Part shown: positions 3,791 through 24,462 of the stretch, piece after piece
Layout: every line of letters begins with the position of its first letter
How positions within the stretch are numbered: position 1 is the first letter of the stretch
Source: a virus
Length of the DNA stretch: 38,035 bases
Strand: one strand, 5' to 3'
Virus genome (UHGV): UHGV-0072754
Notes under the pieces: model-generated
Databases searched by the model: none
The model's input: the letters and a program-made list of their open reading frames with translations, nothing else
Told to the model about the DNA's origin: nothing
Position numbers and translations under genes: made by a program

Positions 3791-4048
3791 ATGCAATCAC
3801 CGTTAAGAAAATTGCGTAAATCGCACGGTATGACCTTGTTGCATGTTGCAACAGGCGTACAGGTCGACCCGGCAACTTTAAGTCGCATTGAAAGATGTGA
3901 ACAGGTTCCATCAGTTGAACTGGCAGAACGTTTAGCCAAGTTCTTCAAAGGCGAGATCAGCGAATTACATATTTTATACCCGAGCCGCTACCAGGTTGCT
4001 GATGACGCATCGGGTAAAGGCAATCGTAATGCGAAAGCAGCCGTCTGA
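3791..4048 (+). CDS. Cro-like HTH regulator (85 aa)
   Basis: AAGGAGG SD then ATG; HTH-like LRKSHGMTLLHVATGVQVDPATLSRIER; divergent from repressor. Confidence 0.65.
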   Translation: MQSPLRKLRKSHGMTLLHVATGVQVDPATLSRIERCEQVPSVELAERLAKFFKGEISELHILYPSRYQVADDASGKGNRNAKAAV

Positions 4049-4070
4049 AAACTACCAAAGGAAAAACAAC

Positions 4071-4541
4071 ATGGTAGAGCCAAGCCTGAAAGAAGTAGTG
4101 AAAGCGATGTGCAAAGCGTACCCCGGAGGCCGTGAGGCTATGGCAGGTGCTCTTGGCATGTCAGTCACGCAGTTCAATAACAATCTGTACGAGAAGAACG
4201 GCTGCCGGTTCTTCGAGGTGAACGAGCTGGAAGCGATGGAGGACATTTCAAACACGTCTTTCCTGGCTGATTACTTCGCGCAACGTCGCGGCGCTCTCCT
4301 GGTGGAAGTTCCGCAACTTGAAGACCTCGATCGCGTTGACCTATTCACCCGTGCAATGAGAACTGCAGCAGCACGCGGTCAGGTTGATCAGATCATTCAG
4401 AAGGCGCTGGAAGATGGAGTGATTGAAGCGCATGAAGCGGAAGAAATTAACGAGTATCACCGCCGTCATCTGGCAGCGCGTGAAGAAGAAATCCGCGCGA
4501 TTGTCGCGCTGTTTAGCCGTAAGCAAAGCCAAAAAAAGTGA
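4071..4541 (+). CDS. cII-position regulatory protein (YdaT-like by position; family not verified)
   Basis: ATG 4071 with AAGGA SD; immediately downstream of cro-like gene; GC-rich hairpin GACGCCCG...CGGGCGTC follows the stop. Confidence 0.45.
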   Translation: MVEPSLKEVVKAMCKAYPGGREAMAGALGMSVTQFNNNLYEKNGCRFFEVNELEAMEDISNTSFLADYFAQRRGALLVEVPQLEDLDRVDLFTRAMRTAAARGQVDQIIQKALEDGVIEAHEAEEINEYHRRHLAAREEEIRAIVALFSRKQSQKK

Positions 4542-4602
4542 CGCCCGCGAGTGTGCAGCTCCGGGCGTCTTGGCGTGTCGTATTCAGTGGAGAAACTAAC
4601 GC

Positions 4603-4941
4603 ATGAACAGTTTAAACCGATTGAGACCAGCGAAGCAATTCAGATGCCTTCCGCTGGTGGGAAAAGATTCCCCGTTCGGCTATGTGGAGAGATTAAACGA
4701 CCAGGCTGATACGAACAACTACCAGCCTGAGAACGCGATGGTAGAGGCTTTTGCTCAGATGAACGAGAAGGGGCGCGAGGAATGGCTGAAGTTAACCGGC
4801 GATTCAAAGACCACTACGGCGTCCCGGTCCGTGTCATCAGATGGGAGCCACAGACCCGACGCGTTATATACCTTCGCGAAGGGTACGATCATGAGTGCTT
4901 CAGCCCTCTTGAGCAATTCCAGCGTAAATTTACAGAGTTAA
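4603..4941 (+). CDS. Hypothetical protein (112 aa); C-terminal half is overlapped by a better-looking ORF in the -1 frame (4782..4994)
   Basis: Strong SD GGAGAAAC before ATG 4603; Ser/Thr-rich low-complexity C-terminus while the overlapping 4782..4994 frame gives a more protein-like sequence (possible frameshift). Confidence 0.35.
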   Translation: MNSLNRLRPAKQFRCLPLVGKDSPFGYVERLNDQADTNNYQPENAMVEAFAQMNEKGREEWLKLTGDSKTTTASRSVSSDGSHRPDALYTFAKGTIMSASALLSNSSVNLQS

Positions 4942-10114: not shown

Positions 10115-10164
10115 TGTGGTAGGCTCGGGACAGTAAAGCGTACTGAGCAACAAATCAAAACATA

Positions 10165-10195
10165 AACCCGCCACTGCTGCGGGTTTTTTATTTTA
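10165..10195 (+). terminator. Intrinsic terminator in late leader
   Basis: CCCGC-cactgct-GCGGG followed by TTTTTTATTTT. Confidence 0.65.
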
Positions 10196-10435
10196 AGGGC
10201 TGCCTCCGGGTGGCCTTTTTTGTTTCCCCTCGTTCTGAGAGGACTCATGGCGATGATGTATTGACCGCTAGAATGGATTAGTCGTAACTTATTATTGTGG
10301 TGAATCCTTTCTAAGCGAAAGGGCGTTCCAGTCAACTGCTATCTGCAGGTATGCGCGCGGCTTTGCTGACTTGGGTAGAGTCACCGGGAGGCACCCGGCA
10401 CCATGACAATAACAATACAGTTTCAAATTCCTTGA

Positions 10436-10467
10436 GAGCCTGCCGTAAAAAGCAGGCCTTTTTTTAT
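10436..10467 (+). terminator. Intrinsic terminator in late leader
   Basis: GCCTGC-cgtaaaaa-GCAGGC followed by CTTTTTTTAT. Confidence 0.65.
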
Positions 10468-10618
10468 GAATTTGCAAACTGCTGCTACGCTTGAAATGTG
10501 TGTTGAAGGTAATTGCCTGATGGTTCTCCTGAACCGTTGTGAACCAGCCCGATACTGTCTCACTCAGGTCAGTTAGCAAGACTCACGACTACCTACCTTA
10601 CTTACTAATAGTCACTCA

Positions 10619-10650
10619 TTAGCCCGCCTTCAAAAGCGGGCTTTTTTTAT
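10619..10650 (+). terminator. Intrinsic terminator 45 bp upstream of the holin gene
   Basis: AGCCCGC-cttcaaa-GCGGGCT followed by TTTTTTTAT. Confidence 0.65.
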
Positions 10651-10695
10651 TCCCCTCATCACTGAGAGGATTCACGGCAATAAGAGGGGGACTAG

Positions 10696-11091
10696 ATGTC
10701 CGATCCTGTTTCTGGCACGACAGTAGCGGCTGGTGGTCTGATGGGGGCCAGCATGTTCGGCCTGGCAACAGGCATAGACTACGGTGTGGTGTTTGGCGCA
10801 TTCGCTGGTGCCGTGTTCTACGTCGCTACGGCAGTTAATATCAGCCGCCTTAAGCTGGTGGGCTACTTCATCACCTCATTCATCTTCGGCGTTATCGGCG
10901 CTCCACTGCTTGGCTCTTACTTCTCCAAATGGACGGGGTATAGCGACAGGCCACTCGATGCGCTGGGCGCGGTAATCGTAGCCGCTATTGCTATTAAGCT
11001 GCTGACGTTCGTAAACAGTCAGGATTTGGGTAGCCTGTTTGGAATTCTCTCGCGTTTACGTGGTGGAGGGGCCAGCAATGGTAACAAGTGA
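10696..11091 (+). CDS. Holin-like membrane protein (131 aa)
   Basis: Several hydrophobic helices, Gly/Ala-rich; first gene of lysis cassette. Confidence 0.55.
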   Translation: MSDPVSGTTVAAGGLMGASMFGLATGIDYGVVFGAFAGAVFYVATAVNISRLKLVGYFITSFIFGVIGAPLLGSYFSKWTGYSDRPLDALGAVIVAAIAIKLLTFVNSQDLGSLFGILSRLRGGGASNGNK

Positions 11092-11359
11092 TCCGAGTGC
11101 GATGGCAAACGCAATTATCTCTGCTGTTATCGTTATTGCACTGATGTTCTACCAGCGCGGCGGGGCGAGACATCGCCCTCTGATATCGCTGATGGCTTAT
11201 TTCACGGTGCTGGTATACGCCAGCGTCCCGTTCCGTTACCTGTTCGGCTTGTACCATGAATCGCACTGGTTCGTGGTGCTGGTGAACGTCCTGATATGCG
11301 CCGCCGTTCTCTGGGCTCGGGGAAACGTAGCACGCCTGGTTGATGCACTGAGGCACTAA
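11078..11359 (+). CDS. Second small membrane protein of the lysis cassette (holin/antiholin candidate, 93 aa)
   Basis: ATG 11078 overlaps upstream stop; 2-3 predicted TM segments; immediately precedes endolysin. Confidence 0.5.
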   Translation: MVTSDPSAMANAIISAVIVIALMFYQRGGARHRPLISLMAYFTVLVYASVPFRYLFGLYHESHWFVVLVNVLICAAVLWARGNVARLVDALRH

Positions 11360-11985
11360 TGAACCAATCACAATTTCAAAAGGCGGCTGGGCTAAGCGCC
11401 GAGTTAGCTGCACGCTGGTTTCAGCCAGTGAGTGATGCGATGAAAGAGTTCGGCATTACGAAACCGGTAGACCAGGCAATGTTCATAGCTCAGGCAGGGC
11501 ATGAATCAGCAGGCTTCACTCTGCTGGTGGAGAGCTTCAACTACCGCATTGCAGCACTCGTGAATTTCATCCGTGCCGGACGTCTCACAGCAGACCAGGC
11601 AAATGCGCTTGGCCGCCGTCCTGAGGAACGAACATTACCGATTGAGCGCCAGCGAGCCATTGCTAACCTGGTATACAGCAAGCGAATGGGGAACAACGCT
11701 CCCGGTGACGGCTGGTTATACCGTGGGCGTGGACTTATCCAGATTACCGGACTCAATAACTACCGTGATTGCGGGAACGGCCTGAAGGTTGATTTGGTTA
11801 AGCAGCCTGAGCTGTTGGCCGAAGATGTTTATGCATCCAGAAGCGCGGCGTGGTTCTTCGCCACTAAGGGATGCCTGAAGTATTCCGGCGACCTGATGCA
11901 GGTGACGAAGATTATCAACGGCGGAACGAACGGACTGGAAGATCGTCGCGCTCGTTTCGGTCAGGCCAAAACGGTATTGGTGTGA
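11359..11985 (+). CDS. Endolysin, glycoside hydrolase family 19 (chitinase-like lysozyme)
   Basis: Motifs FIAQAGHESAGF, YRGRGLIQITGLNNY, YSGDLMQVTKIINGG typical of GH19 phage endolysins. Confidence 0.8.
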   Translation: MNQSQFQKAAGLSAELAARWFQPVSDAMKEFGITKPVDQAMFIAQAGHESAGFTLLVESFNYRIAALVNFIRAGRLTADQANALGRRPEERTLPIERQRAIANLVYSKRMGNNAPGDGWLYRGRGLIQITGLNNYRDCGNGLKVDLVKQPELLAEDVYASRSAAWFFATKGCLKYSGDLMQVTKIINGGTNGLEDRRARFGQAKTVLV

Positions 11986-11992
11986 GGTTGAT

Positions 11993-12268
11993 ATGGGATT
12001 AGAAACAATCGTCGGTATTGCTGCCCTGATAATGGCGGCTATCGCAGGTGCCTTTGGCATTGGTCACTCACGCGGCACCAGCAAAGCGGAAGCTAAAGCC
12101 GACCAACTGCGCACCGAAGAAAAGGCCGCAGCCACTGAAGCAGTAGCCGAACGCCGGGTAGAAGCAACGAAAGAGGCCAGCAATGTACAGCAGACTGTTA
12201 ACCGCATGCCTGATGACGATGTTGATCGCGAGCTGCGCACCACGTGGAAGCGTCCCGGTGGTGGTTGA
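11993..12268 (+). CDS. i-spanin (Rz-like)
   Basis: N-terminal TM helix then charged coiled-coil region; follows endolysin. Confidence 0.7.
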   Translation: MGLETIVGIAALIMAAIAGAFGIGHSRGTSKAEAKADQLRTEEKAAATEAVAERRVEATKEASNVQQTVNRMPDDDVDRELRTTWKRPGGG

Positions 12269-12419
12269 TACCGCCTGTGACTGGGTAAAGCCAATCTACC
12301 TGACCGATCACGACATCGACGTTATGGACCGCCAGACGAAGAAAGACATCCTGGCGCATAACAAAGCGTGGCAGGCGAACTGCCAGAAACCAATAGCAGT
12401 CACCATTCCAAAAGGATAA
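12183..12419 (+). CDS. o-spanin lipoprotein (Rz1-like), overlapping i-spanin in another frame
   Basis: Lipobox LIASC after signal peptide; gene starts inside the Rz-like gene in a different frame (classic Rz/Rz1 architecture). Confidence 0.7.
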   Translation: MYSRLLTACLMTMLIASCAPRGSVPVVVDTACDWVKPIYLTDHDIDVMDRQTKKDILAHNKAWQANCQKPIAVTIPKG

Positions 12420-12474
12420 GCATGACAGCAGGCATTCAATTATCGCCTATGATGATGCTCTTTTATTTAGTTGC

Positions 12475-12483
12475 TGATATAAT
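12475..12483 (+). promoter_or_regulatory. Extended -10 promoter (TGaTATAAT) for the AT-rich moron
   Basis: TGATATAAT 32 nt upstream of the moron start; strong AGGAGGG SD follows. Confidence 0.35.
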
Positions 12484-12514
12484 CCCCCCTAAATGATTTC
12501 AGGAGGGATCTGCG

Positions 12515-12823
12515 TTGTCCGCGATAAACCACATAAAAAACCCGTTAACGATTATCGGTATTTTTGCGGGGATAGTAGAGGTCTCTGCAAACCTCGTATT
12601 ACCTTTTCTTAATGATTCCCAGCAAAGTACATATCTTTGGTTTTTAATGTTTTTCCCGGCAGGGCTTGTAATAGTGTTTTTTTTGACGCTGAATTTTAAT
12701 CATGTTGCACTTTATGCTCCAAGCGATTATAGCAACGATAGAGGATTCATGCAGGCCAATGGTAAAATGATCGGTAATGATGTTCAGGATACTGATGCAA
12801 CACAAGGCTTTGAATTAACATGA
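12515..12823 (+). CDS. Small membrane protein, AT-rich moron gene 1 (102 aa, TTG start)
   Basis: TTG start 7 nt after AGGAGGG; two hydrophobic helices; markedly lower GC than flanking phage genes. Confidence 0.5.
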   Translation: MSAINHIKNPLTIIGIFAGIVEVSANLVLPFLNDSQQSTYLWFLMFFPAGLVIVFFLTLNFNHVALYAPSDYSNDRGFMQANGKMIGNDVQDTDATQGFELT

Positions 12824-13086
12824 ATAAATTCATCTCAAGCACTTTTAATAATACTATCGTCGAACTGGATGGCAACCATTACGAAAAGTGCGTTTTTGAA
12901 AATTGCGAAATTGTATATAAGGGGTTACAGCCTTTTAATTTAATTAATTGTAATTTTATTGCATGCAAATGGAAATTTGAAGGTGCAGCGTCAAACACAA
13001 TTAATTTTTTAAAGGTTATGTATAAAGATATGGGTGAGTTTGGAAAGAAAATGGTAGAAGCCACTTTCGAAAACATAAAAAAATAG
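12820..13086 (+). CDS. Small Cys-containing soluble protein, AT-rich moron gene 2 (88 aa)
   Basis: ATGA overlap with gene 1; repeated motifs resembling pentapeptide repeats (FENCEI, LINCNF, FIACKW); low GC. Confidence 0.5.
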   Translation: MNKFISSTFNNTIVELDGNHYEKCVFENCEIVYKGLQPFNLINCNFIACKWKFEGAASNTINFLKVMYKDMGEFGKKMVEATFENIKK

Positions 13087-13118
13087 TTTCATCCATTTAC
13101 TTTCAATTTATGAGATAT

Positions 13119-13145
13119 TGCCCTGCAATCGCGGGGCTTTTTTAT
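13119..13145 (+). terminator. Intrinsic terminator closing the moron
   Basis: CCCTGC-aatc-GCGGGG then CTTTTTTAT. Confidence 0.55.
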
Positions 13146-13256
13146 GCGCATCGCACGCGCACATCAAAGAAAGTCTTTCAGCTGTGAGCCTGGGCAAACC
13201 GTTAACTTTCGGCGGCCTTGCCGTGCGACAGGCTCACGTCTAAAAGGAAATAAATC

Positions 13257-13838
13257 ATGGGTCAGAAAATTATTACGTTGTCCGGCGCGGCGACGGATGT
13301 TCTGTATGCGCTGTTTTTCCGTGGCGCGCTTCAGTCTGGTGACCTGCCAGCTAAATCTGGTGCCGCTGAGCTTCGAGAGTTGGGATTCGCTGAAACACGC
13401 CATACCGCGACGGAGTATCAAAAGGAAAATTATTTCACCTTCCTGACTGCTGAAGGGCAGGAGTTTGCCATTAAGCATCTGGTAAATACGCGCTTTGGTG
13501 TGCCAGTGGGTAAGCAGTATTGCAGCGCAATCAAAATTGATGTTGAGCTGGACACGTCAGACGCACAAAAGGTTCTTGACGAATTGGACGACAAAATCCG
13601 AAACAACGATGCATTTAAGGCCATGAAAGACGGATGGCAGCTCGAAAAAAACGGAACGATGATTATTAATAACGGCCAGGTATTCATAAAAGATGCCTTC
13701 ATCGATCCCGAAATTAAGACCAGTGTGAAGCTATCCCCTGAAATGGAAAAAGCTATTTCTGATGCTGTGTCAGCCGAACTTAAAAAGAATCTTAAGCCCG
13801 GTGGCATAATCTGGGATTGCTTACGGCGTGGAATCTGA
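13257..13838 (+). CDS. Hypothetical protein (193 aa), first gene of glycosyltransferase module
   Basis: AAGGAAA SD; no family recognised. Confidence 0.55.
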   Translation: MGQKIITLSGAATDVLYALFFRGALQSGDLPAKSGAAELRELGFAETRHTATEYQKENYFTFLTAEGQEFAIKHLVNTRFGVPVGKQYCSAIKIDVELDTSDAQKVLDELDDKIRNNDAFKAMKDGWQLEKNGTMIINNGQVFIKDAFIDPEIKTSVKLSPEMEKAISDAVSAELKKNLKPGGIIWDCLRRGI

Positions 13839-13849
13839 AGGGAGATTTT

Positions 13850-15307
13850 ATGCAGGTCACTATTAATGGTGTCCCATACGCTCCCGCCAGCGTCGTTTCA
13901 TCACGGATCGGCATTGCAATTTCGACACATCAGCGCACAGACGTATTAAAACGAGCACTCGAACAGCACATGAAGCATCTTCCCGCCAGCGCGCTGGTGG
14001 TGGTGGTCGATGATGGTTCAAAACCTGCAGCTGTAGTTCCCCACGGCGTTCAGCTGCATCGACATGAAACATCACTCGGCATTGTTGCTTCGAAGAACAC
14101 TAGCCTGTCAGCCCTGATGGACGCCGGGTGTGAGCATCTCTTCCTGTGGGACGATGACGCCTGGCCCATCGCTGATAACTGGCACTTGCCTTACATTGAA
14201 TCACCCGAGCCACACCTGGCTTACCAGTTTCTCGATCTGGCTGGCCGCAATAAGTTGAATGACCTTTCGGTGCTTTACCGTGACGATCAGCATGTGGCGT
14301 ATACCGGGCAGCGCGGCGTGATGCTGTATTACCACCGCAGCGCCATCGAGAAGGTGGGCGGATTCGATCCGGTTTATGGTCGCGGCATGTACGAACATAG
14401 TGACCTCGCCCTGCGCATCCATAATGCTGGCCTGACGACATGGGCTTACGGTGATGTGGTCGGTTCAGAAAAGCTGATTCACTCTCTCGATGAGCATGAA
14501 GCAGTGGAGCGTTCGGTACCGAAACCAGACCGGCAGGCGCTGGTGGAACGTAACGTTAAAATCCACAACGAACGGCGCGATACCGGGTTTACTGGTTACG
14601 TTGAATACCGCCAGCAGCGCGACGTGGTTATCACTACGTTACTGACCAGCCAGCCTGACCCTCAGCGCGGCACAAAAATGACGGCCTCGCCTGACATGCT
14701 GAGTAAATGGGCGGCATCGCTGCGTAATTGTGGACGTATCGCGCTGGTGGATGAACTTCAGACGGCCCCGGCAGACGTTGAGCTGTACCGCGTCCCTGAC
14801 GTGAAGATGAATGTCTACTTTCGTCGCTGGTTGCACATCTGGCAGCACCTGCGAGAACACCCTGAATACCGGTTCGTCTGGTGTACCGATGGGACCGATG
14901 TCGAAATGCTTCGCGCACCGTGGGAAGAAATGCAGCCCGGTAATGTTTATGTCGGTTCAGAACCGAAGACATACGCCGACGCATGGGCAAAACAGAATCA
15001 TCCTGAGCGTATCTATCAGGAGTTCATTGAAGCGCACCGCAATAATGTGATGCTTAACGCTGGTCTGCTGGGTGGCACCCGCGCTGATGTAATGGCGTTC
15101 GCTCACGGCATCATCCGTCTTTACTACCGGATCGAGAGTTATCGTTTCTGGAAGAAAGAACAGGCTGGCGCCGCGGTGGGGGATATGATCGCTTTTGGCA
15201 TTGTCTCGCAGTCATTCGCTGACAGGCTGGTCACCGGCCCTCTGGTACATACCGTTTTCAAAACTGATGGTATCGGTAAGGAGGCCGCATGGTGGAAACA
15301 CAAGTGA
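13850..15307 (+). CDS. Glycosyltransferase, GT-A fold (family 2-like) N-domain plus unknown C-terminal domain (485 aa)
   Basis: GAAGGGAGA SD before ATG 13850; motifs VVVVDDGS, FLWDDDAWP (DXD-type), GGFDP...GMYEHSDL characteristic of GT2 enzymes. Confidence 0.65.
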   Translation: MQVTINGVPYAPASVVSSRIGIAISTHQRTDVLKRALEQHMKHLPASALVVVVDDGSKPAAVVPHGVQLHRHETSLGIVASKNTSLSALMDAGCEHLFLWDDDAWPIADNWHLPYIESPEPHLAYQFLDLAGRNKLNDLSVLYRDDQHVAYTGQRGVMLYYHRSAIEKVGGFDPVYGRGMYEHSDLALRIHNAGLTTWAYGDVVGSEKLIHSLDEHEAVERSVPKPDRQALVERNVKIHNERRDTGFTGYVEYRQQRDVVITTLLTSQPDPQRGTKMTASPDMLSKWAASLRNCGRIALVDELQTAPADVELYRVPDVKMNVYFRRWLHIWQHLREHPEYRFVWCTDGTDVEMLRAPWEEMQPGNVYVGSEPKTYADAWAKQNHPERIYQEFIEAHRNNVMLNAGLLGGTRADVMAFAHGIIRLYYRIESYRFWKKEQAGAAVGDMIAFGIVSQSFADRLVTGPLVHTVFKTDGIGKEAAWWKHK

Positions 15308-15879
15308 AGTTTATTGTGGTTGGCCATCACTCTCGCATAGGTCATGCGCAACGACTTGCCGCGCAGCTGGATGCTCATCTGCTTATTGATGACGGTAACC
15401 GCGGCGCGAACTGGAATCATCGGCGTGCGCTTGAGTGGGCAGCAGAGCAAACATGCCGGGTAGTGATGTTGGAAGACGACGCGATTCCTGTGCAGGGCTT
15501 CACCGATAAGGTAACTGAATGGCTGGTGCGCTTCCCTGACGACATGCTGAGCTTTTATCTCGGTACCGGCCGACCGCCGCAATATCAGAAAGAGATTGCC
15601 GGAATGCTGGTGGATGCGGATCGCGTCTGTGGTGACCACATCGTATTAAGCAAACTGATACACGGAGTATGTTACAGCCCTCCGCAGGGCAGGCTGGCGC
15701 GCATGCTTAACGCATGGAATAAAACGCTGGCAGCTGATTACGCCGTCGGTGAGGCATTCGGTGGCCGGGTGATTTATCCGTGTTACTCGCTGGTGGACCA
15801 CGCTGACCTCCAGACGGTTGAGCGTCACCCTGACAACGAGCCGAGGACAGAACGCCGCCGCGCATGGAGGCTGGCATGA
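15289..15879 (+). CDS. Hypothetical protein (196 aa), possibly nucleotide-sugar transferase-like
   Basis: AAGGAGG SD; overlaps the end of the GT gene; acidic motif VVMLEDDAIP; ATGA-coupled to HNH gene. Confidence 0.5.
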   Translation: MVETQVKFIVVGHHSRIGHAQRLAAQLDAHLLIDDGNRGANWNHRRALEWAAEQTCRVVMLEDDAIPVQGFTDKVTEWLVRFPDDMLSFYLGTGRPPQYQKEIAGMLVDADRVCGDHIVLSKLIHGVCYSPPQGRLARMLNAWNKTLAADYAVGEAFGGRVIYPCYSLVDHADLQTVERHPDNEPRTERRRAWRLA

Positions 15880-16217
15880 ACAAAGAGCCCCGCGTATATG
15901 GCAGCCGATGGGATAAGGCCCGTCTGCGTTTCCTGCAGCAGCACCCACTATGTGTGATGTGTGAGCAACAGGGGCGCATTACCCCAGCAACGGTGGTTGA
16001 CCATATCGAGCCCCACAAACTTAAAGATGCGCTTAAGTCAGGTAACCCTCTGGCCATATCGAAAGCACAGCACCTGTTCTGGAGTAAAGAGAACTGGCAG
16101 CCACTGTGCAAAGCGCATCATGACTCAACGAAACAGAGAATGGAGAAGAGCGGCGCGGTAATAGGCTGTGATGCCAACGGCTACCCGCTCGATCCTGCGT
16201 CTCACTGGAGCACGTAA
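15876..16217 (+). CDS. HNH endonuclease (packaging-associated)
   Basis: CVMCEQQGRITPATVVDHIEPH...CKAHH HNH motif; immediately upstream of terminase genes as in HK97-like cos phages. Confidence 0.8.
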   Translation: MNKEPRVYGSRWDKARLRFLQQHPLCVMCEQQGRITPATVVDHIEPHKLKDALKSGNPLAISKAQHLFWSKENWQPLCKAHHDSTKQRMEKSGAVIGCDANGYPLDPASHWST

Positions 16218-16420
16218 TGAAAGACCTCAGCATTGAATACCGCGATGGAAAATTCGTTCGCCTGGTGATTGATGGCGTGGAGATGAAGAACGTGACATCC
16301 ATTCAGTTCTCGCACGCTGTAGGGCAGGAGGTGCCGACAGTGACCGTCTCAGGGCATGTTGTCTCCGGGCGTGTGAAAGGCACTCAGAAACTCGAACAGG
16401 TAGACAAACATTCGGCATAG
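16217..16420 (+). CDS. Hypothetical small protein (67 aa)
   Basis: TAATG overlap with the HNH gene. Confidence 0.4.
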   Translation: MKDLSIEYRDGKFVRLVIDGVEMKNVTSIQFSHAVGQEVPTVTVSGHVVSGRVKGTQKLEQVDKHSA

Positions 16421-16602
16421 CGCGGCGGCGGCAAGTCGATTACCAATTATGTGAAATCATTTCAAATGCAACGATATCAAATGAGAATGAATCGCATCAG
16501 GGCAGGGGGGGATCAAATCTTCAAAACCTTTGCCCCAAATGACCGCCGCCAAAGTTTGATTTTAACGCTAACCCGATTTTTTTAGTTTTAAGGTGTTGAC
16601 AT
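16421..16602. other. Candidate cos / terminase recognition region
   Basis: Noncoding gap between HNH and TerS with GC-rich inverted elements (GCGCGGCGGCGGC at 16420-16432 and GACCGCCGCC at 16540-16549) and a G-run (CAGGGCAGGGGGGG). Confidence 0.25.
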
Positions 16603-17088
16603 ATGGCAGATAAACGAACCCGTTCCGACAGTTCGGCGGCAGCGGTTCAGGCCATGAAAAATGCAGCAGTGGACACCATCGATCCTCCGTCCCATGCAGG
16701 TTTGGAAAAAAAAGCCGAACCATTCTGGCATGACAATATCAGATCGAAAGCTCTGGACAGCTGGACCCCGGCCGACCTTCTGGCAGCTGTAGAGCTGGCA
16801 AATAACCAGCTCTATATAACGGTTTTACGTAAGGATTTACGCAAAGAAGAGCGAGCACGCGGAGAGGGCCGCGACGAAGGGCTTATCAAAGACCTACGCA
16901 AGCAGATTGTTGAGCTGCAGCGAACTATTCTGGCTCAGCGCCGTGACCTCCAGATCCATTCCCACGCAACCAACGGCGAAAGCCGCGACCAGAAGAAACG
17001 CAATCAGAATGATCGTGATGCACGAAATACCAAAAACGAGCATCAGGACCAGGATGACAACCTGATCGCCTTTCCCAAGCATGGATAA
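16603..17088 (+). CDS. Terminase small subunit (P27-family-like)
   Basis: Size, charged C-terminus, and position between HNH and large terminase. Confidence 0.65.
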   Translation: MADKRTRSDSSAAAVQAMKNAAVDTIDPPSHAGLEKKAEPFWHDNIRSKALDSWTPADLLAAVELANNQLYITVLRKDLRKEERARGEGRDEGLIKDLRKQIVELQRTILAQRRDLQIHSHATNGESRDQKKRNQNDRDARNTKNEHQDQDDNLIAFPKHG

Positions 17089-17094
17089 AAGACT

Positions 17095-18609
17095 ATGACG
17101 CGAGGTAAGCGTGTAATAGCGTTCATCGAGCGCTTTTGCATCGTGCCGGAAGGCAAGCTTATTGGCCAGCCCATGAGGCTGGACCCCTTTCAGAAAGAAT
17201 TCATCCTGGCGGTTTACGACAATCCAGCCGGAACGGATATGGCGATCCTCAGCATCGCCCGAAAAAATGGTAAGACTGGCCTAATTGCCGGAATTCTGCT
17301 GGCTCACCTGGTGGGTCCTGAAGCGGTGCAGAACACGCAGATTGTCAGCGGTGCACTCAGCCGGGAACAGGCGGCCATCGTTTTTAACCTCGCGGTGAAG
17401 ATGGTTAACCTGAACCCCAAGCTGCAGGAGATTGTGCACATTACGCCCAGCGGCAAAAAGCTGATCGGCCTGCCGTGTAACGTCGAATACAAGGCTTTAT
17501 CCGCAGAAGGAAAGACGACGCACGGACTTTCCCCCATTCTGGCCATTCTCGATGAAACCGGGCAGGTTAGGGGGCCGCAGGATGATTTTATCGATGCAAT
17601 AACTACCGCGCAGGGGGCGCATGAAAACCCGCTGCTGATTGTTATCAGTACGCAGGCAGCAAACGATGCTGACCTGCTGAGCATCTGGATTGATGATGCG
17701 GTCAAATCGAAAGATCCGCACATCGTGTGCCACGTTTATGAAGCGCCAAAAGACGCTGATATCAGTAAACGCGAGTCCTGGCTGGCTGCGAACCCGGCAC
17801 TGGGAACATTCAGGTCAGAAAAAGACATGGCGCGCCAGGCTGAGAAAGCTGGCCGAATGCCAAGCTTCGAAAACACCTTCCGAAACCTCAACCTCAATCA
17901 GCGCGTGTCTACCGTATCGCCGTTTATCTCCCGCAGCGTGTGGGAGCTTTGCGGAGAGATGCCGTTTAACACGCCGAGGAAGTGGTACGCGGGGCTGGAT
18001 CTGTCAGCCAGGAACGACTTAACGGCGCTGGTTATCGCTGGTGAAGCAGATGATGGTGTTTGGGATGTTTTCCCCTTCTTCTGGACACCGCAAAAAACCC
18101 TTGAAGAGCGAACCAAAACGGACCGCGCCCCCTATGACGTTTGGGTGAGAGAGGGGCTGCTGCGCACCACGCCAGGCGCTTCGGTGGATTACTCATTCGT
18201 CGTTGCGGATATCGCTGAAATTATCGGTGATTTCGACCTTACGTCGATGGCTTTTGACCGCTGGCGCATTGACCAGTTCAGGAAGGATGCCGATGCCATT
18301 GGGCTTAGCCTCCCGCTGGTCGAGTTCGGCCAGGGCTTTAAGGATATGGGGCCAGCTGTAGACACGCTGGAGTCTCTGATGCTTAACGGGCGTGTGAGGC
18401 ATGGCATGCACCCCGTATTAACGATGTGTGCTGTGAATGCGGTGGTGGTGAAAGATGCTGCTGGCAACCGCAAGCTCGATAAATCCAAAGCAACGGGCCG
18501 TATTGATGGCATGGTCGCAATGACAATGTCCGTTGGTGCTGCTAATGGGGAAGTTACCGAACAGGGTGGTGACTTCGACGACTTCATTTTCCGACCGCTG
18601 AGCATGTGA
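17095..18609 (+). CDS. Terminase large subunit
   Basis: Walker A-like ARKNGKTG; ATPase plus nuclease-sized protein (504 aa); followed by portal. Confidence 0.9.
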   Translation: MTRGKRVIAFIERFCIVPEGKLIGQPMRLDPFQKEFILAVYDNPAGTDMAILSIARKNGKTGLIAGILLAHLVGPEAVQNTQIVSGALSREQAAIVFNLAVKMVNLNPKLQEIVHITPSGKKLIGLPCNVEYKALSAEGKTTHGLSPILAILDETGQVRGPQDDFIDAITTAQGAHENPLLIVISTQAANDADLLSIWIDDAVKSKDPHIVCHVYEAPKDADISKRESWLAANPALGTFRSEKDMARQAEKAGRMPSFENTFRNLNLNQRVSTVSPFISRSVWELCGEMPFNTPRKWYAGLDLSARNDLTALVIAGEADDGVWDVFPFFWTPQKTLEERTKTDRAPYDVWVREGLLRTTPGASVDYSFVVADIAEIIGDFDLTSMAFDRWRIDQFRKDADAIGLSLPLVEFGQGFKDMGPAVDTLESLMLNGRVRHGMHPVLTMCAVNAVVVKDAAGNRKLDKSKATGRIDGMVAMTMSVGAANGEVTEQGGDFDDFIFRPLSM

Positions 18610-19883
18610 TGGAAGAACCTAAATACACGATTGACCTGCGAACCAATAACGGCTGGTGGGCAAGGCTGCAGTCCTGGTTTGTCGGCGGGCGTTTAGTCAC
18701 CCCAAATCAGGGCTCACAGACGGGGCCTGTTTCGGCCCACGGACACCTGGGCGATTCATCCATTAACGATGAACGGATACTGCAAATTTCGACTGTGTGG
18801 CGCTGCGTGAGTCTGATTTCAACGCTCACGGCATGCTTACCGCTTGATGTCTTCGAAACTGACCAGAATGACAACCGCAAAAAAGTGGGTTTGAGCAATC
18901 CGCTGGCGCGACTGCTGCGCTACTCACCGAATCAGTACATGACCGCCCAGGAATTCAGGGAGGCCATGACGATGCAGCTCTGTTTCTACGGTAACGCGTA
19001 TGCACTGGTGGACCGCAATAGCGCGGGTGACGTGATCAGCCTTCTCCCGCTTCAGTCTGCCAATATGGATGTGAAACTCGTCGGAAAAAAAGTGGTTTAT
19101 CGCTATCAACGCGACAGCGAATACGCCGACTTTTCGCAGAGAGAGATTTTTCACCTTAAAGGCTTCGGATTCACCGGGCTGGTCGGCCTGTCACCAATTG
19201 CTTTTGCCTGTAAATCGGCAGGTGTGGCAGTTGCGATGGAGGACCAGCAGCGAGATTTCTTTGCCAATGGCGCCAAGTCTCCGCAAATCCTCTCAACCGG
19301 CGAAAAAGTGCTAACTGAACAGCAGCGCTCGCAGGTCGAAGAGAACTTCAAAGAGATCGCCGGCGGTCCGGTTAAAAAACGCCTCTGGATTCTGGAAGCG
19401 GGCTTTTCCACATCGGCAATTGGCGTAACGCCACAGGATGCCGAAATGATGGCGTCCCGAAAATTTCAGGTAAGTGAACTGGCGCGATTCTTTGGCGTAC
19501 CGCCTCACCTTGTTGGCGACGTCGAGAAATCAACGAGCTGGGGATCGGGCATCGAGCAGCAGAATCTCGGCTTCCTGCAGTACACCTTGCAGCCCTATAT
19601 CTCCCGGTGGGAAAACAGCATTCAGCGGTGGCTTATTCCTGCTAAGGATGTTGGCCGCATTCATGCTGAGCACAACCTCGATGGCCTGCTGAGGGGCGAT
19701 TCTGCCTCCCGTGCCGCGTTCATGAAGGCAATGGGAGAGTCCGGCCTCCGTACCATCAACGAAATGCGCCGAACGGACAACATGCCGCCATTACCTGGTG
19801 GCGATGTGGCGATGCGACAGGCGCAGTATGTGCCAATTACCGACTTAGGAACCAACAAAGAGCCCCGTAATGACGGGGCTTAA
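18609..19883 (+). CDS. Portal protein (HK97 family)
   Basis: ATG overlaps TerL stop (TGATG); size and conserved portal core recalled from the HK97 family. Confidence 0.85.
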   Translation: MEEPKYTIDLRTNNGWWARLQSWFVGGRLVTPNQGSQTGPVSAHGHLGDSSINDERILQISTVWRCVSLISTLTACLPLDVFETDQNDNRKKVGLSNPLARLLRYSPNQYMTAQEFREAMTMQLCFYGNAYALVDRNSAGDVISLLPLQSANMDVKLVGKKVVYRYQRDSEYADFSQREIFHLKGFGFTGLVGLSPIAFACKSAGVAVAMEDQQRDFFANGAKSPQILSTGEKVLTEQQRSQVEENFKEIAGGPVKKRLWILEAGFSTSAIGVTPQDAEMMASRKFQVSELARFFGVPPHLVGDVEKSTSWGSGIEQQNLGFLQYTLQPYISRWENSIQRWLIPAKDVGRIHAEHNLDGLLRGDSASRAAFMKAMGESGLRTINEMRRTDNMPPLPGGDVAMRQAQYVPITDLGTNKEPRNDGA

Positions 19884-19900
19884 TTTTTATGGGGGCCGTG

Positions 19901-20578
19901 ATGCCTGAAATTGTAAAAACGCTGTCTTTCGACGAGACAGAAATCAAGTTCACCGGTGACGGGAAGCAGGGGATTTTCGAAGGCTATGCCTCAGTTTTCA
20001 ATAACACCGATTCCGATGGCGACATCATTCTGCCCGGGGCGTTTAAGAACGCACTGGTGAACCAGACCCGCAAAGTGGCGATGTTTTTCAACCACAAGAC
20101 GTGGGAGCTGCCGGTTGGTAAATGGGACAGCCTGGCCGAAGACGAAAAAGGCCTGTATGTGCGCGGTCAACTTACCCCAGGGCACAGCGGCGCCGCCGAC
20201 CTGAAAGCGGCAATGCAGCACGGTACGGTTGAGGGTATGTCGGTTGGCTTTTCCGTTGCGAAAGACGATTACACCATCATTCCAACAGGCCGCATTTTTA
20301 AGAATATCCAGGCTCTGCGCGAAATCAGCGTCTGCACTTTCCCCGCCAACGAACAGGCTGGCATCGCAGCCATGAAAAGTGTCGACGGCATTGAAACGAT
20401 TCGTGATGTGGAGAACTGGCTGAGGGATTCAGTCGGGCTCACCAAATCACAGGCAGTTGGGTTAATAGCCCGGTTTAAGTCAGCGATTCGGAGCGAGTCC
20501 GAGGGCGACGGAAACGAAGCACAAATCAACGCTCTGCTTCAGAGCATTAAATCTTTCCCTTCCAATTTAGGTAATTAA
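19901..20578 (+). CDS. Prohead protease (HK97 family)
   Basis: Follows portal; in-frame ATG at 19889 lacks an SD while 19901 follows GGGGG. Confidence 0.8.
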   Translation: MPEIVKTLSFDETEIKFTGDGKQGIFEGYASVFNNTDSDGDIILPGAFKNALVNQTRKVAMFFNHKTWELPVGKWDSLAEDEKGLYVRGQLTPGHSGAADLKAAMQHGTVEGMSVGFSVAKDDYTIIPTGRIFKNIQALREISVCTFPANEQAGIAAMKSVDGIETIRDVENWLRDSVGLTKSQAVGLIARFKSAIRSESEGDGNEAQINALLQSIKSFPSNLGN

Positions 20579-20580
20579 TT

Positions 20581-21738
20581 ATGTCTGAACTCGCTCTCAT
20601 TCAAAAAGCAATCGAAGAATCCCAGCAGAAAATGACCCAGCTGTTCGATGCGCAGAAAGCTGAAATCGAAAGCACGGGCCAGGTTTCAAAACAGCTGCAG
20701 TCCGACCTGGCAAAAGTACAGGAAGAACTGTCCAAATCCGGTACCCGCCTCTTCGATCTGGAACAGAAACTGGCTTCCGGTGCTGAAAATCCGGGTGAGA
20801 AGAAATCCTTCTCTGAACGTGCTGCTGAAGATCTCATCAAGTCATGGGACGGTAAACAGGGCACTTTCGACGCGAAGACGTTTAACAAGTCTCTCGGCAG
20901 TGACGCTGATTCTGCTGGCTCACTGATCCAGCCGATGCAGATCCCTGGCATCATCATGCCGGGCCTGCGCCGTCTGACTATTCGTGACCTGCTGGCTCAG
21001 GGCCGTATGACCAGTAACGCTCTCGAATACGTGCGTGAAGAGGTGTTTACCAATAACGCCGACGTAGTGGCAGAGAAGGCGCTTAAGCCAGCGTCGGATA
21101 TCACCTTCAGCAAACAGACCGCGAACGTAAAGACCATCGCGCACTGGGTGCAGGCATCACGTCAGGTGATGGACGATGCGCCAATGCTGCAGTCCTACGT
21201 TAACAACCGCCTCATGTACGGTCTGGCACTGAAGGAAGAAGGCCAGCTGCTGAACGGCGACGGCACCGGGGATAACCTAGAAGGTCTGAACAAAGTGGCA
21301 ACCGCCTACGACACCTCGCTGAATGCCACCGGCGACACCCGCGCTGACATTATCGCTCACGCCATTTATCAGGTGACCGAATCTGAGTTTAGCGCTTCCG
21401 GTATCGTCCTGAACCCGCGCGACTGGCACAACATTGCGCTGCTGAAAGACAATGAAGGCCGTTATATTTTCGGCGGCCCTCAGGCGTTTACCAGCAACAT
21501 CATGTGGGGGCTGCCAGTAGTTCCGACTAAGGCACAGGCCGCCGGTACCTTTACGGTGGGCGGTTTCGATATGGCCTCTCAGGTGTGGGATCGCATGGAT
21601 GCCACCGTGGAAGTCAGCCGAGAAGACCGCGATAACTTCGTGAAAAACATGCTGACCATCCTGTGCGAAGAGCGCCTGGCGCTGGCGCACTATCGCCCGA
21701 CGGCAATCATCAAGGGCAGTTTCTCTTCTGGCTCATGA
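20581..21738 (+). CDS. Major capsid protein (HK97 fold) with N-terminal delta/scaffold-like coiled coil
   Basis: Coiled-coil N-terminal ~100 aa then capsid-like domain; canonical position after the protease. Confidence 0.9.
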   Translation: MSELALIQKAIEESQQKMTQLFDAQKAEIESTGQVSKQLQSDLAKVQEELSKSGTRLFDLEQKLASGAENPGEKKSFSERAAEDLIKSWDGKQGTFDAKTFNKSLGSDADSAGSLIQPMQIPGIIMPGLRRLTIRDLLAQGRMTSNALEYVREEVFTNNADVVAEKALKPASDITFSKQTANVKTIAHWVQASRQVMDDAPMLQSYVNNRLMYGLALKEEGQLLNGDGTGDNLEGLNKVATAYDTSLNATGDTRADIIAHAIYQVTESEFSASGIVLNPRDWHNIALLKDNEGRYIFGGPQAFTSNIMWGLPVVPTKAQAAGTFTVGGFDMASQVWDRMDATVEVSREDRDNFVKNMLTILCEERLALAHYRPTAIIKGSFSSGS

Positions 21739-21771
21739 TGGAGGGGGCGGGGTGACCCGCCCTTTTAACTT

Positions 21772-22098
21772 ATGGCGATAGATGTTCTGGATGTAATTGG
21801 CCTCCGCCTGTTTAAGCAGCAGATTGAATTTGAGGAAGACGACAGGGACGAGCTGATCACCCTTTACGCGCAGGCTGCTTTTGATTACTGCATACGCTGG
21901 TGCGATGAACCAGCGTGGAAAGTTGCAGCTGATATTCCTGCAGCCGTTAAGGGCGCCGTTCTCCTTGTCTTTGCTGACATGTTTGAACACCGCACCGCGC
22001 AAAGCGAAGTACAGCTTTATGAGAACGCCGCAGCAGAACGCATGATGTTCATCCATCGCAACTGGCGCGGTAAATCTGAACCTGAGGAGGGCTCCTGA
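21772..22098 (+). CDS. Head-tail connector (gp6-like)
   Basis: 108 aa, first gene after capsid. Confidence 0.55.
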   Translation: MAIDVLDVIGLRLFKQQIEFEEDDRDELITLYAQAAFDYCIRWCDEPAWKVAADIPAAVKGAVLLVFADMFEHRTAQSEVQLYENAAAERMMFIHRNWRGKSEPEEGS

Positions 22099-22436
22099 TG
22101 GAACCTGGACGATTCAGGCACCGGGTAAAAATTCTCACCTTCACGACTTCGCGCGATCCCTCTGGCCAGCCGGTTGAATCGTGGACTGGTGGCAACCCGG
22201 TCCCGGCTGAGGTGAAGGGGATCAGCGGCAGAGAGCAGCTTTCAGGCGGCGCGGAAACGGCGCAGGCAACCATTCGCGTCTGGATGCGCTTCAGGGCAGA
22301 GCTGAACGCCTCTTCTCGTCTGGAAGTGCTCAGCGGACCGTATAAAGGTCAGGTGCTAAATATCATCGGTCCTCCTGTAGCAAATACGACTGGCACTCGC
22401 CTGGAAATTCTTTGCAAAACGGGAGCCGAAAAATGA
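22098..22436 (+). CDS. Head closure / head-tail joining protein
   Basis: 112 aa; HRVKI...IRVWMR...LEILC pattern recalled from this family; ATGA coupling. Confidence 0.65.
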   Translation: MEPGRFRHRVKILTFTTSRDPSGQPVESWTGGNPVPAEVKGISGREQLSGGAETAQATIRVWMRFRAELNASSRLEVLSGPYKGQVLNIIGPPVANTTGTRLEILCKTGAEK

Positions 22437-22882
22437 TTGAGACGAGCCTCGATTTTTCCGGGTTAAATGACATCGCAAAGGACCTGGAGGCGTTGAGTCG
22501 CGCTGAAAACAACAAGGTTCTGCGTGATGCCACGCGCGCCGGTGCTGAAGTGCTGAAGGAAGAAGTGATCGCTCGCGCGCCAGTGCGTACCGGGAAATTG
22601 AAAAAAAACGTGGTGGTGGTGACCCAAAAAAGCCGCCGCCGCGGGGAAATTTCTTCCGGTGTCCACATTCGTGGTGTCAACCCGCGTACCGGGAACAGCG
22701 ATAACACGATGAAGGCGAATAACCCGAGAAACGCCTTTTACTGGCGATTCGTCGAAATGGGTACTGTTAACATGCCGCCGCACCCGTTCATTCGTCCAGC
22801 GTTCGATGTTCGCCAGGAGCAGGCGACGGAGGTCGCGATCAGGCGCATGAACCAGGCCATTGACGAGGCATTAAGCAAATGA
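22433..22882 (+). CDS. Tail component (HK97 gp10-like)
   Basis: GGAG SD before ATG 22433; ATGA overlap; position. Confidence 0.6.
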   Translation: MIETSLDFSGLNDIAKDLEALSRAENNKVLRDATRAGAEVLKEEVIARAPVRTGKLKKNVVVVTQKSRRRGEISSGVHIRGVNPRTGNSDNTMKANNPRNAFYWRFVEMGTVNMPPHPFIRPAFDVRQEQATEVAIRRMNQAIDEALSK

Positions 22883-23226
22883 CGGAAGACGATCTCTATC
22901 CTCTGCTGGCGCCGCTGGCCGGAGGGCAGGTTTATCCCTACGTTGCGCCGCTCGGCAGTGACGGGAAGCCTTCAGTCTCTCCGCCCTGGGTAATTTTCTC
23001 GATTATTACCGACGTGGCCGCAGACGTTCTTTGCGGTCAGGCTGAATCTGCCGTTTCTGTGCAGGTTGATGTCTATTCCAGCACCATTACTGAAGCGCGC
23101 ACGATCAGGAATCTGGCGCTTGATGCCCTGCAGGTGCTGAAACCGGAAAGCATTGTGAAAACGCCAGGATATGAGCCTGATCTGCGTTATCACCGGGCGA
23201 CGCTCGAATTTCAGGTCACCGTCTGA
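22879..23226 (+). CDS. Tail terminator-like protein
   Basis: 115 aa; last gene before the major tail protein. Confidence 0.5.
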   Translation: MTEDDLYPLLAPLAGGQVYPYVAPLGSDGKPSVSPPWVIFSIITDVAADVLCGQAESAVSVQVDVYSSTITEARTIRNLALDALQVLKPESIVKTPGYEPDLRYHRATLEFQVTV

Positions 23227-23243
23227 CCAGACCTAAACCATCC

Positions 23244-23268
23244 CACCCGCTCAGGCGGGTTTTTTATT
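23244..23268 (+). terminator. Intrinsic terminator/attenuator before major tail gene
   Basis: ACCCGC-tcag-GCGGGT then TTTTTTATTT. Confidence 0.6.
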
Positions 23269-23281
23269 TCAGGAGACAGTT

Positions 23282-23725
23282 ATGTCCTCACTTTATGAAA
23301 AATCACAGGGCACGAAGATTCAGATCACTTCTGCCCCGGCAACGCCAGAAACGGTCGGTTCAGCAACCTATCTGGATTTGCAGTGCACCATTAAAGAGGT
23401 GCAGTTCACTGGCGGTCAGAAACAGGATATCGACGTCACAACCCTGTGTTCTACAGAGCAGGAGAATATCAACGGCCTGGGTGCGCAGTCAGAAATTTCA
23501 CTGTCGGGTAACTTCTACTCCAACCCGGCACAGGATGCCCTACGTGAGGCCTACGACAACGACACCACATACGGTTTCAAAATCATTTTCCCTTCCGGGA
23601 TCGGCTTCCAGTTCCTGGCTGAAGTTCGCCAGCACACCTGGTCATCAGGTACAAACAGCGTCGTGGCCGCCACATTCTCGCTGCGTCTGAAGGGCAAGCC
23701 CCAGAAAATTGATCCGGGTTCATAA
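23282..23725 (+). CDS. Major tail (tube) protein
   Basis: Strong SD CAGGAGACAGTT-ATG; follows an attenuator; position before tail chaperones. Confidence 0.65.
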   Translation: MSSLYEKSQGTKIQITSAPATPETVGSATYLDLQCTIKEVQFTGGQKQDIDVTTLCSTEQENINGLGAQSEISLSGNFYSNPAQDALREAYDNDTTYGFKIIFPSGIGFQFLAEVRQHTWSSGTNSVVAATFSLRLKGKPQKIDPGS

Positions 23726-23735
23726 GGAGTAACCG

Positions 23736-24406: not shown

Positions 24407-24462
24407 CTTTCATCCCGGAAGATATTAGGATTTATTCGACTAATACTTCTGGAGCTAATTTA

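Follow-up and report, generated by a model that had tools for sequence, protein, structure and literature searches.

We analysed a 38,035-nucleotide stretch of DNA from a virus (UHGV virus genome UHGV-0072754; the whole stretch is called the window here), concentrating on an island of low guanine-plus-cytosine (GC) content that follows the lysis genes and carries two small coupled genes, which we call A and B. Our sequence analysis indicates that A and B are two halves of one type of protein, a membrane module and a cytoplasmic domain encoded separately, rather than two unrelated proteins of unknown kind. This conclusion is well supported, and it was missed by the original prediction, an annotation made by a model from the letters of the sequence, which had described the island as an autonomous two-gene moron and recognised neither protein. 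It is also well supported that the unit is a mobile, self-contained, low-GC moron and that the whole cassette moves between different phages. As for function, the reading that we favour is that A and B together form a membrane-anchored sensor-effector, expressed in the lysogen and directed against other phages through superinfection exclusion or abortive infection. We hold this reading tentatively, at slightly under an even chance.

The division of one protein over two genes can be followed through many related loci. Wherever a short A (95-123 aa) has enough sequence downstream, an open reading frame (ORF) of about 88-107 aa comes next, at -3, 0 or -9 nt. In 44 loci, genomes of Pseudomonas and Steroidobacter included, this ORF is a homolog of B (30-100% identity), and contig L160 adds a further short-A/B pair. 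In one IMG/VR contig (L150) the two are found on a single 194-aa ORF, with the A profile matching at residues 1-104 and the B profile at residues 103-187. B also occurs with other membrane segments: in seven contigs (P0132) it is fused to a different, non-A N-terminal membrane segment, and in L161 (24-735) it lies directly downstream of a different 140-aa protein with two hydrophobic segments. The recurrence of short A followed by B, the fusion in L150 and the association of B with other membrane segments together argue that A plus B is a split protein, made of a membrane anchor and a cytoplasmic domain. Unlike most members of its family, A has no C-terminal domain on its own chain and ends in a disordered tail of 40 residues; the C-terminal domain appears to be supplied in trans by B, and this split variant is kept in about 45 loci. 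The two ATGA-coupled genes of 102 and 88 aa announced by the original prediction were indeed found (Table 1), and both are under purifying selection, with pairwise ratios of nonsynonymous to synonymous substitution rates (dN/dS) that lie at 0.03-0.18 in A and at 0.04-0.28 in B for those comparisons among eight equal-length cassettes in which dS was unsaturated. Nor is A or B, by homology, a fragment of a known lysis or tail gene, an outcome that the original prediction had named as one that would speak against it.

A is the N-terminal module of a very large, unnamed family of bacteria and phages. It matches phrog_26238, a PHROG without assigned function, with E = 8.5e-26, but the match covers only positions 6-85 of a 303-position profile. 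A word-indexed search returned more than 100 homologs of 40-97% identity from Enterobacterales, Vibrio, Aeromonas, Pseudomonas and Marinobacter, and a profile search over 1.84 billion representatives returned 2,730 clusters at E <=1e-3 and 1,675 at <=1e-10. The family members found by the profile search are typically 260-320 aa long, and all of the 150 best matches except one have the A module at the N-terminus, with its start inside the first ~25 residues. Pattern scans identified 220 relatives in species-representative genomes and 69 more in IMG/VR contigs. The spread of the family over phyla is patchy, and includes Proteobacteria, Bacteroidota, Planctomycetota, Verrucomicrobiota, Acidobacteriota, Bacillota, Chloroflexota and Patescibacteria. 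No model in Pfam, NCBIfam or PADLOC covers the A module, whether A itself, 99 long forms or 50 representatives were used, and sequence searches of the PDB with the A family and with its dominant long form gave chance matches only.

The conserved core of A comprises about 75 residues and bears the motifs NPLT..IFAG..E.. and LYAPSD[YF]. Residues N9, P10, L11, F17, E22, F47, P48, L51, F55 and F56 are invariant, as are L59, L66, Y67, P69, S70 and D71, most of the latter belonging to the motif L66-Y-A-P-S-D71. AlphaFold places helices at residues 10-31 and 34-61 with a predicted local distance difference test (pLDDT) score of ~90, followed by the disordered tail. This model suggests that A is a two-helix membrane hairpin, probably with both termini in the cytoplasm (N-in/C-in), a topology indicated by the short uncharged loop between the helices and by the cytoplasmic nature of the domains attached to the module in its relatives, such as winged helix-turn-helix (wHTH) domains. 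A was also considered as a holin and rejected: it matches no holin family in Pfam or PHROG, while two genes upstream match Phage_holin_8 and Phage_holin_3_7 strongly.

In most of its relatives the A module is the head of a longer chain. It heads ORFs of 150-371 aa (mostly 190-370) in 103 of 151 loci, and the C-terminal parts that follow LYAPSD[YF] fall into at least 16 unrelated BLAST clusters. The largest of these (53 loci) has the pattern helix..FDG..E[VI]K, which by eye resembles the core of PD-(D/E)xK nucleases; other clusters are wHTH domains, with matches to MarR, IclR and TrmB, or tetratricopeptide repeats. The long forms were searched for a conserved partner gene, and none emerged. Among 136 nearest neighbours of the long forms, about 9-12 are strong matches to defence proteins (E from 1e-16 to 0), including BrxC (BREX), PtuA/AriA-type ATPases (Septu/PARIS), mad3/mad8 (MADS), a Type I restriction-modification specificity subunit and a CBASS effector with two transmembrane (TM) segments (2TM). 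On raw counts, this looks higher than the ~1.5% of bacterial genes predicted to belong to anti-phage systems, as quoted in a 2026 review (PMC13434031). Split arrangements with partners other than B were also seen: in Kaiserbacteria (L080 3986-4817), a 111-aa A-family module overlaps an unrelated 176-aa ORF, and in Nitrosomonas (L033, L036 and L039, ~3965-4660), a module of 153-161 aa is followed by a 64-aa ORF.

For B, a first search gave only six relatives owing to the word index used, and a profile search raised the number to 42. The original prediction had seen pentapeptide-like repeats in B. AlphaFold (40 sequences, pLDDT 97) predicts nine short strands that build three beta-solenoid coils; the thresholds of the pentapeptide families are not reached. 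B scores 15.5 bits against Pfam Pentapeptide_4 (cut-off 38), 14.2 bits against the NCBIfam Qnr model NF033086 (cut-off 240) and 18.3 bits against the NCBIfam HalA model (cut-off 250); its weak sequence likenesses are to AlbG (E = 0.003) and HalA (E = 0.16). The conserved Cys and Phe residues occupy repeat positions of the predicted solenoid, and in this model the Cys appear to be structural rather than part of a metal or redox motif. After the coils, helices 55-70 and 72-87 form a predicted C-terminal helical hairpin. This hairpin, with the sequence pattern NTxxFL..MG.FG..MVE.TFENIKK, is the best-conserved stretch of B and a candidate docking surface.

The window derives from an HK97-like lambdoid phage or prophage. 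Its positions 10164-24407 show a 92% match to Escherichia phage SaltyDalty, and mEp390, ENT39118, ECP1 and HK97 also match large parts of it. The lysis cassette upstream of the island is complete by Pfam and PHROG matches, with two holins, an endolysin, Rz and Rz1. The GC content drops from 54.6% in the left flank (the lysis genes) to 35.6% in the island (12420-13143) and returns to 53.5% in the right flank, which confirms the low-GC island of the original prediction, and the cassette is lower in GC than its flanks in all the related loci listed. In the alignment, identity to mEp390 and SaltyDalty ends in the final Rz1 codons (~12389) and restarts at the T-run of the terminator (~13139). Between these junctions mEp390 has gp53 and SaltyDalty has two small ORFs, with the same flanks on both sides.

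The same island, at ~96.5% identity, is present in 35 of 5,426 complete E. coli genomes. In the one genome examined, the block in common is 12038-13250, and the island there stands after a different holin and a peptidoglycan-binding endolysin, directly before the terminase. At the megablast level, the island was found in no deposited phage genome. In IMG/VR phage contigs carrying the cassette, the two genes closest to it on the upstream side mostly code for spanins or endolysins, with spanins from several PHROGs (214, 13, 1026, 2466 and 1275), and on the downstream side HNH endonucleases or small terminase subunits come first. Since several unrelated spanin and endolysin families are found upstream, the slot between lysis and packaging genes is the usual home of the cassette whatever the type of lysis gene. 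The slot after Rz/Rz1, which had been put forward as a hotspot for morons, is variable, seen from both sides: it holds other small genes in mEp390 and SaltyDalty, and the cassette stands behind unrelated lysis cassettes elsewhere. What travels is the inverted repeat, the promoter, the hairpin masking the Shine-Dalgarno (SD) sequence, A, B and the terminator. The A-B pair also occurs at non-phage sites, for example on a 1-Mb contig (L160), where a histidine kinase and its sigma-54 response regulator flank it. In Pseudomonas sp. R28 (L009 1814-3944) the neighbours of the pair are a C-5 cytosine DNA methylase and a 370-aa protein that matches HEPN_AbiU2 below threshold (E = 6e-4), which may be a context of defence or mobile genes. 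In E. coli strain EC5 (H21, NZ_CP060969.1 2000655-2002230), the island is interrupted by IS1A.

The left end of the cassette is a compact leader whose elements are conserved among distant relatives. The extended -10 promoter of the original prediction finds support in that TGATATAAT is present and that its critical bases are invariant in 17 diverged leaders, whose proteins differ by up to ~45%, although a simple -35/-10 consensus scan did not call it. The scan misses it because the -35 hexamer (ATGCTC) is poor, and the call was made from the extended -10 together with comparative conservation. In the 17 leaders, T1 and A2 of the -10 box are invariant and T6 nearly so, and the same constancy is seen at the ATG opening the -35 hexamer, at the start codon and at the GG of the SD. 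Where the -35 is close to consensus (ATGACA), the -10 is weaker (TAATAT or TAACAT) and lacks TGn, whereas the clade of the window combines a poor -35 with a perfect extended -10. This trade-off is the compensation expected of a functional promoter. The strong SD and the TTG start are present as originally described. Two features of the leader are additions beyond the original prediction, namely an inverted repeat upstream and a conserved hairpin that masks the SD. In the inverted repeat, 92.7% of the cells in the 17 leaders are paired and both sides have changed at 8 of 13 pairs, a value reached by none of 500 shuffles, with slid controls at or below 50%; in the copy of the window, 3 mismatches are present. 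The repeat may act as an operator palindrome or form an RNA hairpin. In the second hairpin, a C/U-rich arm pairs with the SD just after the -10 box, in the same register in all 12 distinct leaders folded, and for 8 of the 12 no more than 6 of 200 shuffles equal the hairpin. These folds were computed for each sequence separately, since the hairpins are misaligned in a MAFFT alignment of the leaders, on which RNAalifold gave no structure. The leader, the inverted repeat and the conserved element downstream of the island match no Rfam family.

The geometry of the leader suggests how translation may depend on the origin of the transcript. The predicted transcription start, ~7 nt after the -10 box (12489-12491), coincides with the 3' edge of the anti-SD arm, so that transcripts from the cassette's own promoter should have a free SD. 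Late transcripts reading through from the lysis operon would carry the anti-SD arm and have their SD masked; no intrinsic terminator was found on the + strand between Rz1 and A. With a candidate promoter and a terminator of its own the unit could be made in a lysogen, and we infer expression in the lysogen with such origin-dependent masking of the SD. In phage T4, gene e (lysozyme) and soc have an SD-sequestering stem in transcripts from upstream promoters that is absent or truncated in transcripts starting at the stem. A likeness to these genes is predicted from the geometry, as the -10 box abuts the anti-SD arm in 12 of 12 leaders; the difference is that the polarity here would favour lysogenic over late expression. 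At the other end of the unit, the terminator claimed in the original prediction is present as a hairpin followed by T6, but it is the island's own only in part: the stem is island sequence, while the T-run and everything to its right are common to other phages and belong to the phage backbone. Of 37 distinct cassettes, 28 have a terminator-like hairpin and T-run after B, and their stems differ in sequence.

Table 1. Positions of the cassette, its elements and the neighbouring lysis genes in the window.
Feature	Position	Strand	Basis or remark
Gene A, 102 aa, TTG start	12515..12823	+	ORF; phrog_26238 match
Gene B, 88 aa	12820..13086	+	ATGA-coupled to A; phrog_26297, E = 3.6e-33
A/B ATGA overlap	12820-12823	+	
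Inverted repeat, two helices, left end of cassette	12420..12458	+	3' arm overlaps -35 region
Sigma-70-type promoter (putative)	12455..12483	+	-35 ATGCTC at 12455-12460, 17-nt spacer, extended -10
Extended -10 TGATATAAT	12475-12483	+	Sequence and conservation
Anti-SD:SD hairpin UCCCCCCU ... AGGAGGGA	12483..12508	+	Begins at final -10 base
SD AGGAGGG	12501-12507	+	7 nt before TTG start at 12515
Intrinsic terminator GCCCTGCAATCGCGGGGC + T6	13120..13143	+	7-bp GC-rich stem, 4-nt loop
Segment swapped for other cargo in closest relatives	12390..13138	+	Alignment with mEp390 and SaltyDalty; GC content
Holin	10696-11091		Phage_holin_8, E = 5e-39
Holin	11039-11359		Phage_holin_3_7, E = 8e-20
GH19-type endolysin	11359-11985		Pfam/PHROG
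Rz	11993-12268		phrog_1026
Rz1	12183-12419		phrog_1275

Based on these data, a working model of the favoured sensor-effector can be drawn. A would form an N-in/C-in two-helix hairpin in the inner membrane, and B would be made as a subunit of its own, with its translation coupled to that of A, and would presumably dock on the cytoplasmic tail of A or on its LYAPSDY motif. The unit would be transcribed from its own extended -10 promoter and end at its own terminator, and hence could be made in a lysogen, where the own-promoter transcripts, having no anti-SD arm, would be translated. B would have the part that the variable C-terminal domains would have in the single-chain relatives, namely to recognise, at the inner membrane face, a protein or nucleic acid derived from a phage. 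The hairpin with its invariant intramembrane Glu would then respond, either by oligomerising into an ion leak, which would lead to abortive infection, or alternatively by blocking genome entry, which would amount to superinfection exclusion. We favour this reading on indirect grounds: because a constant membrane module is joined to variable cytoplasmic domains, because these domains are mostly of binding type, because the genes are solitary, patchy in distribution and mobile, and because some of them lie beside defence genes. In a more ambitious form, which we regard as possible but doubtful, the A hairpin would serve as the constant effector in a class of single-chain membrane immune sensors that has not yet been described and has at least 2,730 clusters in many bacterial phyla and their phages. 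As effector, it would be an oligomer formed around the Glu that conducts ions or disrupts the membrane. The exchangeable cytoplasmic domains (nuclease-like, wHTH, tetratricopeptide repeat or beta-solenoid) would determine what is sensed, and the window would hold a phage-borne, two-subunit version with a leader that restricts translation to own-promoter transcripts.

Several results weigh against the sensor-effector reading or the steps that lead to it. Pfam, NCBIfam and PADLOC give no significant family for A or B; in PADLOC-DB v2.0.0 neither matches any family at E <=1, and a literature search found nothing on the A or B proteins. The A-B fusion occurs in one metagenomic viral contig only (L150), where a frameshift error is possible, and a search for close relatives of the fused protein returned split pairs only. 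Two distant B homologs (P0133 and P0142) stand alone on chromosomes, and no membrane partner is encoded close to them. The SD hairpin of the window itself (-8.8 kcal/mol) is no better than its shuffles (z = -0.97), and the transcription start used in the leader model is a prediction. No Pfam or PDB match backs the nuclease-like reading of the dominant C-terminal domain. The neighbours of the long forms are mostly ordinary housekeeping genes, and the excess of defence genes among them is modest and comes from a comparison of raw counts.

Of the other explanations, a Bor-like role in lysogenic conversion, that is, a change in the envelope physiology of the host such as stress, serum or antimicrobial tolerance, survives best, and we consider it unlikely. 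The slot and the moron anatomy are those of bor-type genes, the product is a membrane protein, and the cassette is found in prophages of clinical E. coli and of the Klebsiella type. A trait specific to such a host niche is hard to reconcile with a family present in many phyla and environments, Patescibacteria, Planctomycetota and metagenome-assembled genomes from sea and soil among them. The variable domains, being cytoplasmic (wHTH and others), point to an intracellular ligand, and A and B, unlike Bor, have neither a signal peptide nor a lipobox.

We think it rather improbable that the cassette is a lysis accessory, with A acting like a holin, antiholin or pinholin, B as its cytoplasmic regulator, and late expression tuning the timing of lysis. 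Position is what recommends this idea, since the cassette directly follows Rz/Rz1 here and spanins or endolysins in many phage contigs. A is moreover small, with two TM helices and a hydrophilic tail, and late read-through into the cassette is expected, given that no intrinsic terminator was found in between. The existing lysis cassette is nevertheless complete, and the closest phages share the lysis genes without A and B, while elsewhere the cassette accompanies spanins and endolysins of several unrelated families. Non-phage chromosomal sites, too, harbour A-B pairs and thousands of single-chain relatives. The cassette also brings a candidate promoter, a terminator and an SD mask of its own, and the mask would reduce the translation of read-through transcripts.

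An addiction module that stabilises the prophage, with A as a membrane-depolarising toxin and B as the matching antitoxin, is in our assessment improbable to a still greater degree. Two small, tightly coupled genes, one of them encoding a membrane hairpin with an intramembrane acidic residue, are what such a module would look like, and the cassette is mobile and patchily distributed. Most members of the family are, however, single chains, and the pair is fused in L150, which fits poorly with a separable, labile antitoxin; the C-terminal domains are diverse and of binding type instead of forming one antitoxin family, and B homologs exist without A. Finally, that the pair is a decaying remnant, one gene broken by a frameshift with neither ORF functional, might be suspected from the single-chain state of most relatives and from the 4-nt overlap of the ORFs in different frames, but this is barely credible when the split, with an ATGA- or TAATG-type junction, is kept in ~45 loci at 30-100% identity, dN/dS is well below 1 for both ORFs, and B has its own conserved start.

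Comparison with known systems places the unit among the morons without assigning it to any described family. Lambdoid phages carry morons such as bor and lom of lambda and the superinfection-exclusion moron gp15 of HK97. Like these, the unit has a candidate promoter and a terminator of its own, a deviant GC content, a membrane product and a slot in the late operon that holds variable cargo. Unlike them, it comprises two coupled genes instead of one, matches no known family of moron products, and adds a conserved upstream inverted repeat and an SD-masking hairpin. RexAB of lambda combines a membrane channel and a cytoplasmic sensor, both expressed from the prophage, and leads to abortive infection. 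The likeness to RexAB lies in the proposed logic, a small membrane subunit and a soluble partner made in the lysogen against other phages. The differences are that RexB has four TM helices whereas A has two, that A and B have no Pfam RexA or RexB match, that rex lies in the immunity region whereas the unit here follows the lysis genes, and that the family described here is usually single-chain.

Pentapeptide-repeat proteins (Qnr, MfpA, AlbG/McbG) were considered as a family for B and rejected, as B has three coils and a helical hairpin, is 88 aa long as opposed to ~180-220 aa, and scores below threshold. Nor is B an acidic DNA mimic of the Qnr or MfpA type, because its basic and acidic residues are about equal in number (~11 and ~10, counted from the sequence), and unlike Qnr-type proteins it is tied to a membrane partner. 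HalA, the effector of Hailong, is described in PMC13434031, which cites Tan et al. 2025, as a DNA-gated tetrameric ion channel. Membership in Hailong was rejected too: B falls far short of the HalA cut-off, A has no HalA match, and the likeness is generic to pentapeptide and solenoid proteins. No HalB nucleotidyltransferase was found near A and B, whose neighbours are spanins on one side and, on the other, a 193-aa protein of unknown function and glycosyltransferases.

The same review (PMC13434031) describes Rip1, which is encoded in the late region of a prophage next to the terminase genes and whose related genes lie mostly in a prophage context, and SNIPE, a membrane-anchored nuclease that acts at DNA entry. 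Rip1 has an amphipathic helix, and SNIPE consists of one TM segment, a domain of unknown function (DUF) and a nuclease (PMC13434031). Each joins a membrane or pore-forming element to a recognition or effector domain, as we propose for A and B; this is an analogy by description, and the architectures differ. SNIPE would resemble the dominant long form if the FDG..EVK domain of the latter is a nuclease. HalA, Rip1, SNIPE and Kiwa show that such membrane-associated defence designs exist (PMC13434031), and none of the four is related to A or B by any test that we ran.

If the sensor-effector reading is true, an easily cloned cassette of 570 bp would give experimental access to an unnamed family of thousands of members. 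Its modular logic, one membrane hairpin with many cytoplasmic domains, would extend the range of membrane-acting effectors in phage defence, and its natural domain-swap variants would help to work out what is sensed. The leader, with a promoter nested against an SD-masking stem and a covarying inverted repeat over the -35 region, is a compact and conserved example of moron regulation, and leaders of this kind could explain how morons can be silent in late read-through RNA and yet be expressed in lysogens. Should the defence reading be wrong, the evidence from split and fused forms would still provide a firm structural annotation for PHROGs 26238 and 26297, neither of which has a known function.

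Other elements of interest lie on both sides of the island. Right after its terminator is a non-coding element of ~110 nt (13139-13250) that can form a long stem, GTGAGCCTG...CAGGCTCAC, with a minimum free energy of -39.3 kcal/mol (z = -2.06). Copies with 93-100% identity stand before different genes in otherwise unrelated phages, namely HK639 (after the terminator of the major tail gene), mEp213, mEp043, mEp237, mEp390, Fostie and Aeromonas phage AsXd-1. In HK639, the gene just downstream of this conserved leader element is HK639_13, which lies between tail genes and codes for a 226-aa protein of unknown function. A second cargo block (13257-15879) follows in the window between the lysis and packaging genes. 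It holds the 193-aa protein already mentioned (phrog_16910/17079), a 496-aa glycosyltransferase (phrog_1579, E = 9e-254) and a 196-aa ORF whose equivalent in mEp390 is annotated as a glucosyltransferase. On the other side, upstream of the first holin gene (10696), positions 10268-10469 match the Rfam family STnc100 (RF02076) with 58.4 bits against a gathering score of 47, at a place where a late-operon leader RNA might be expected.

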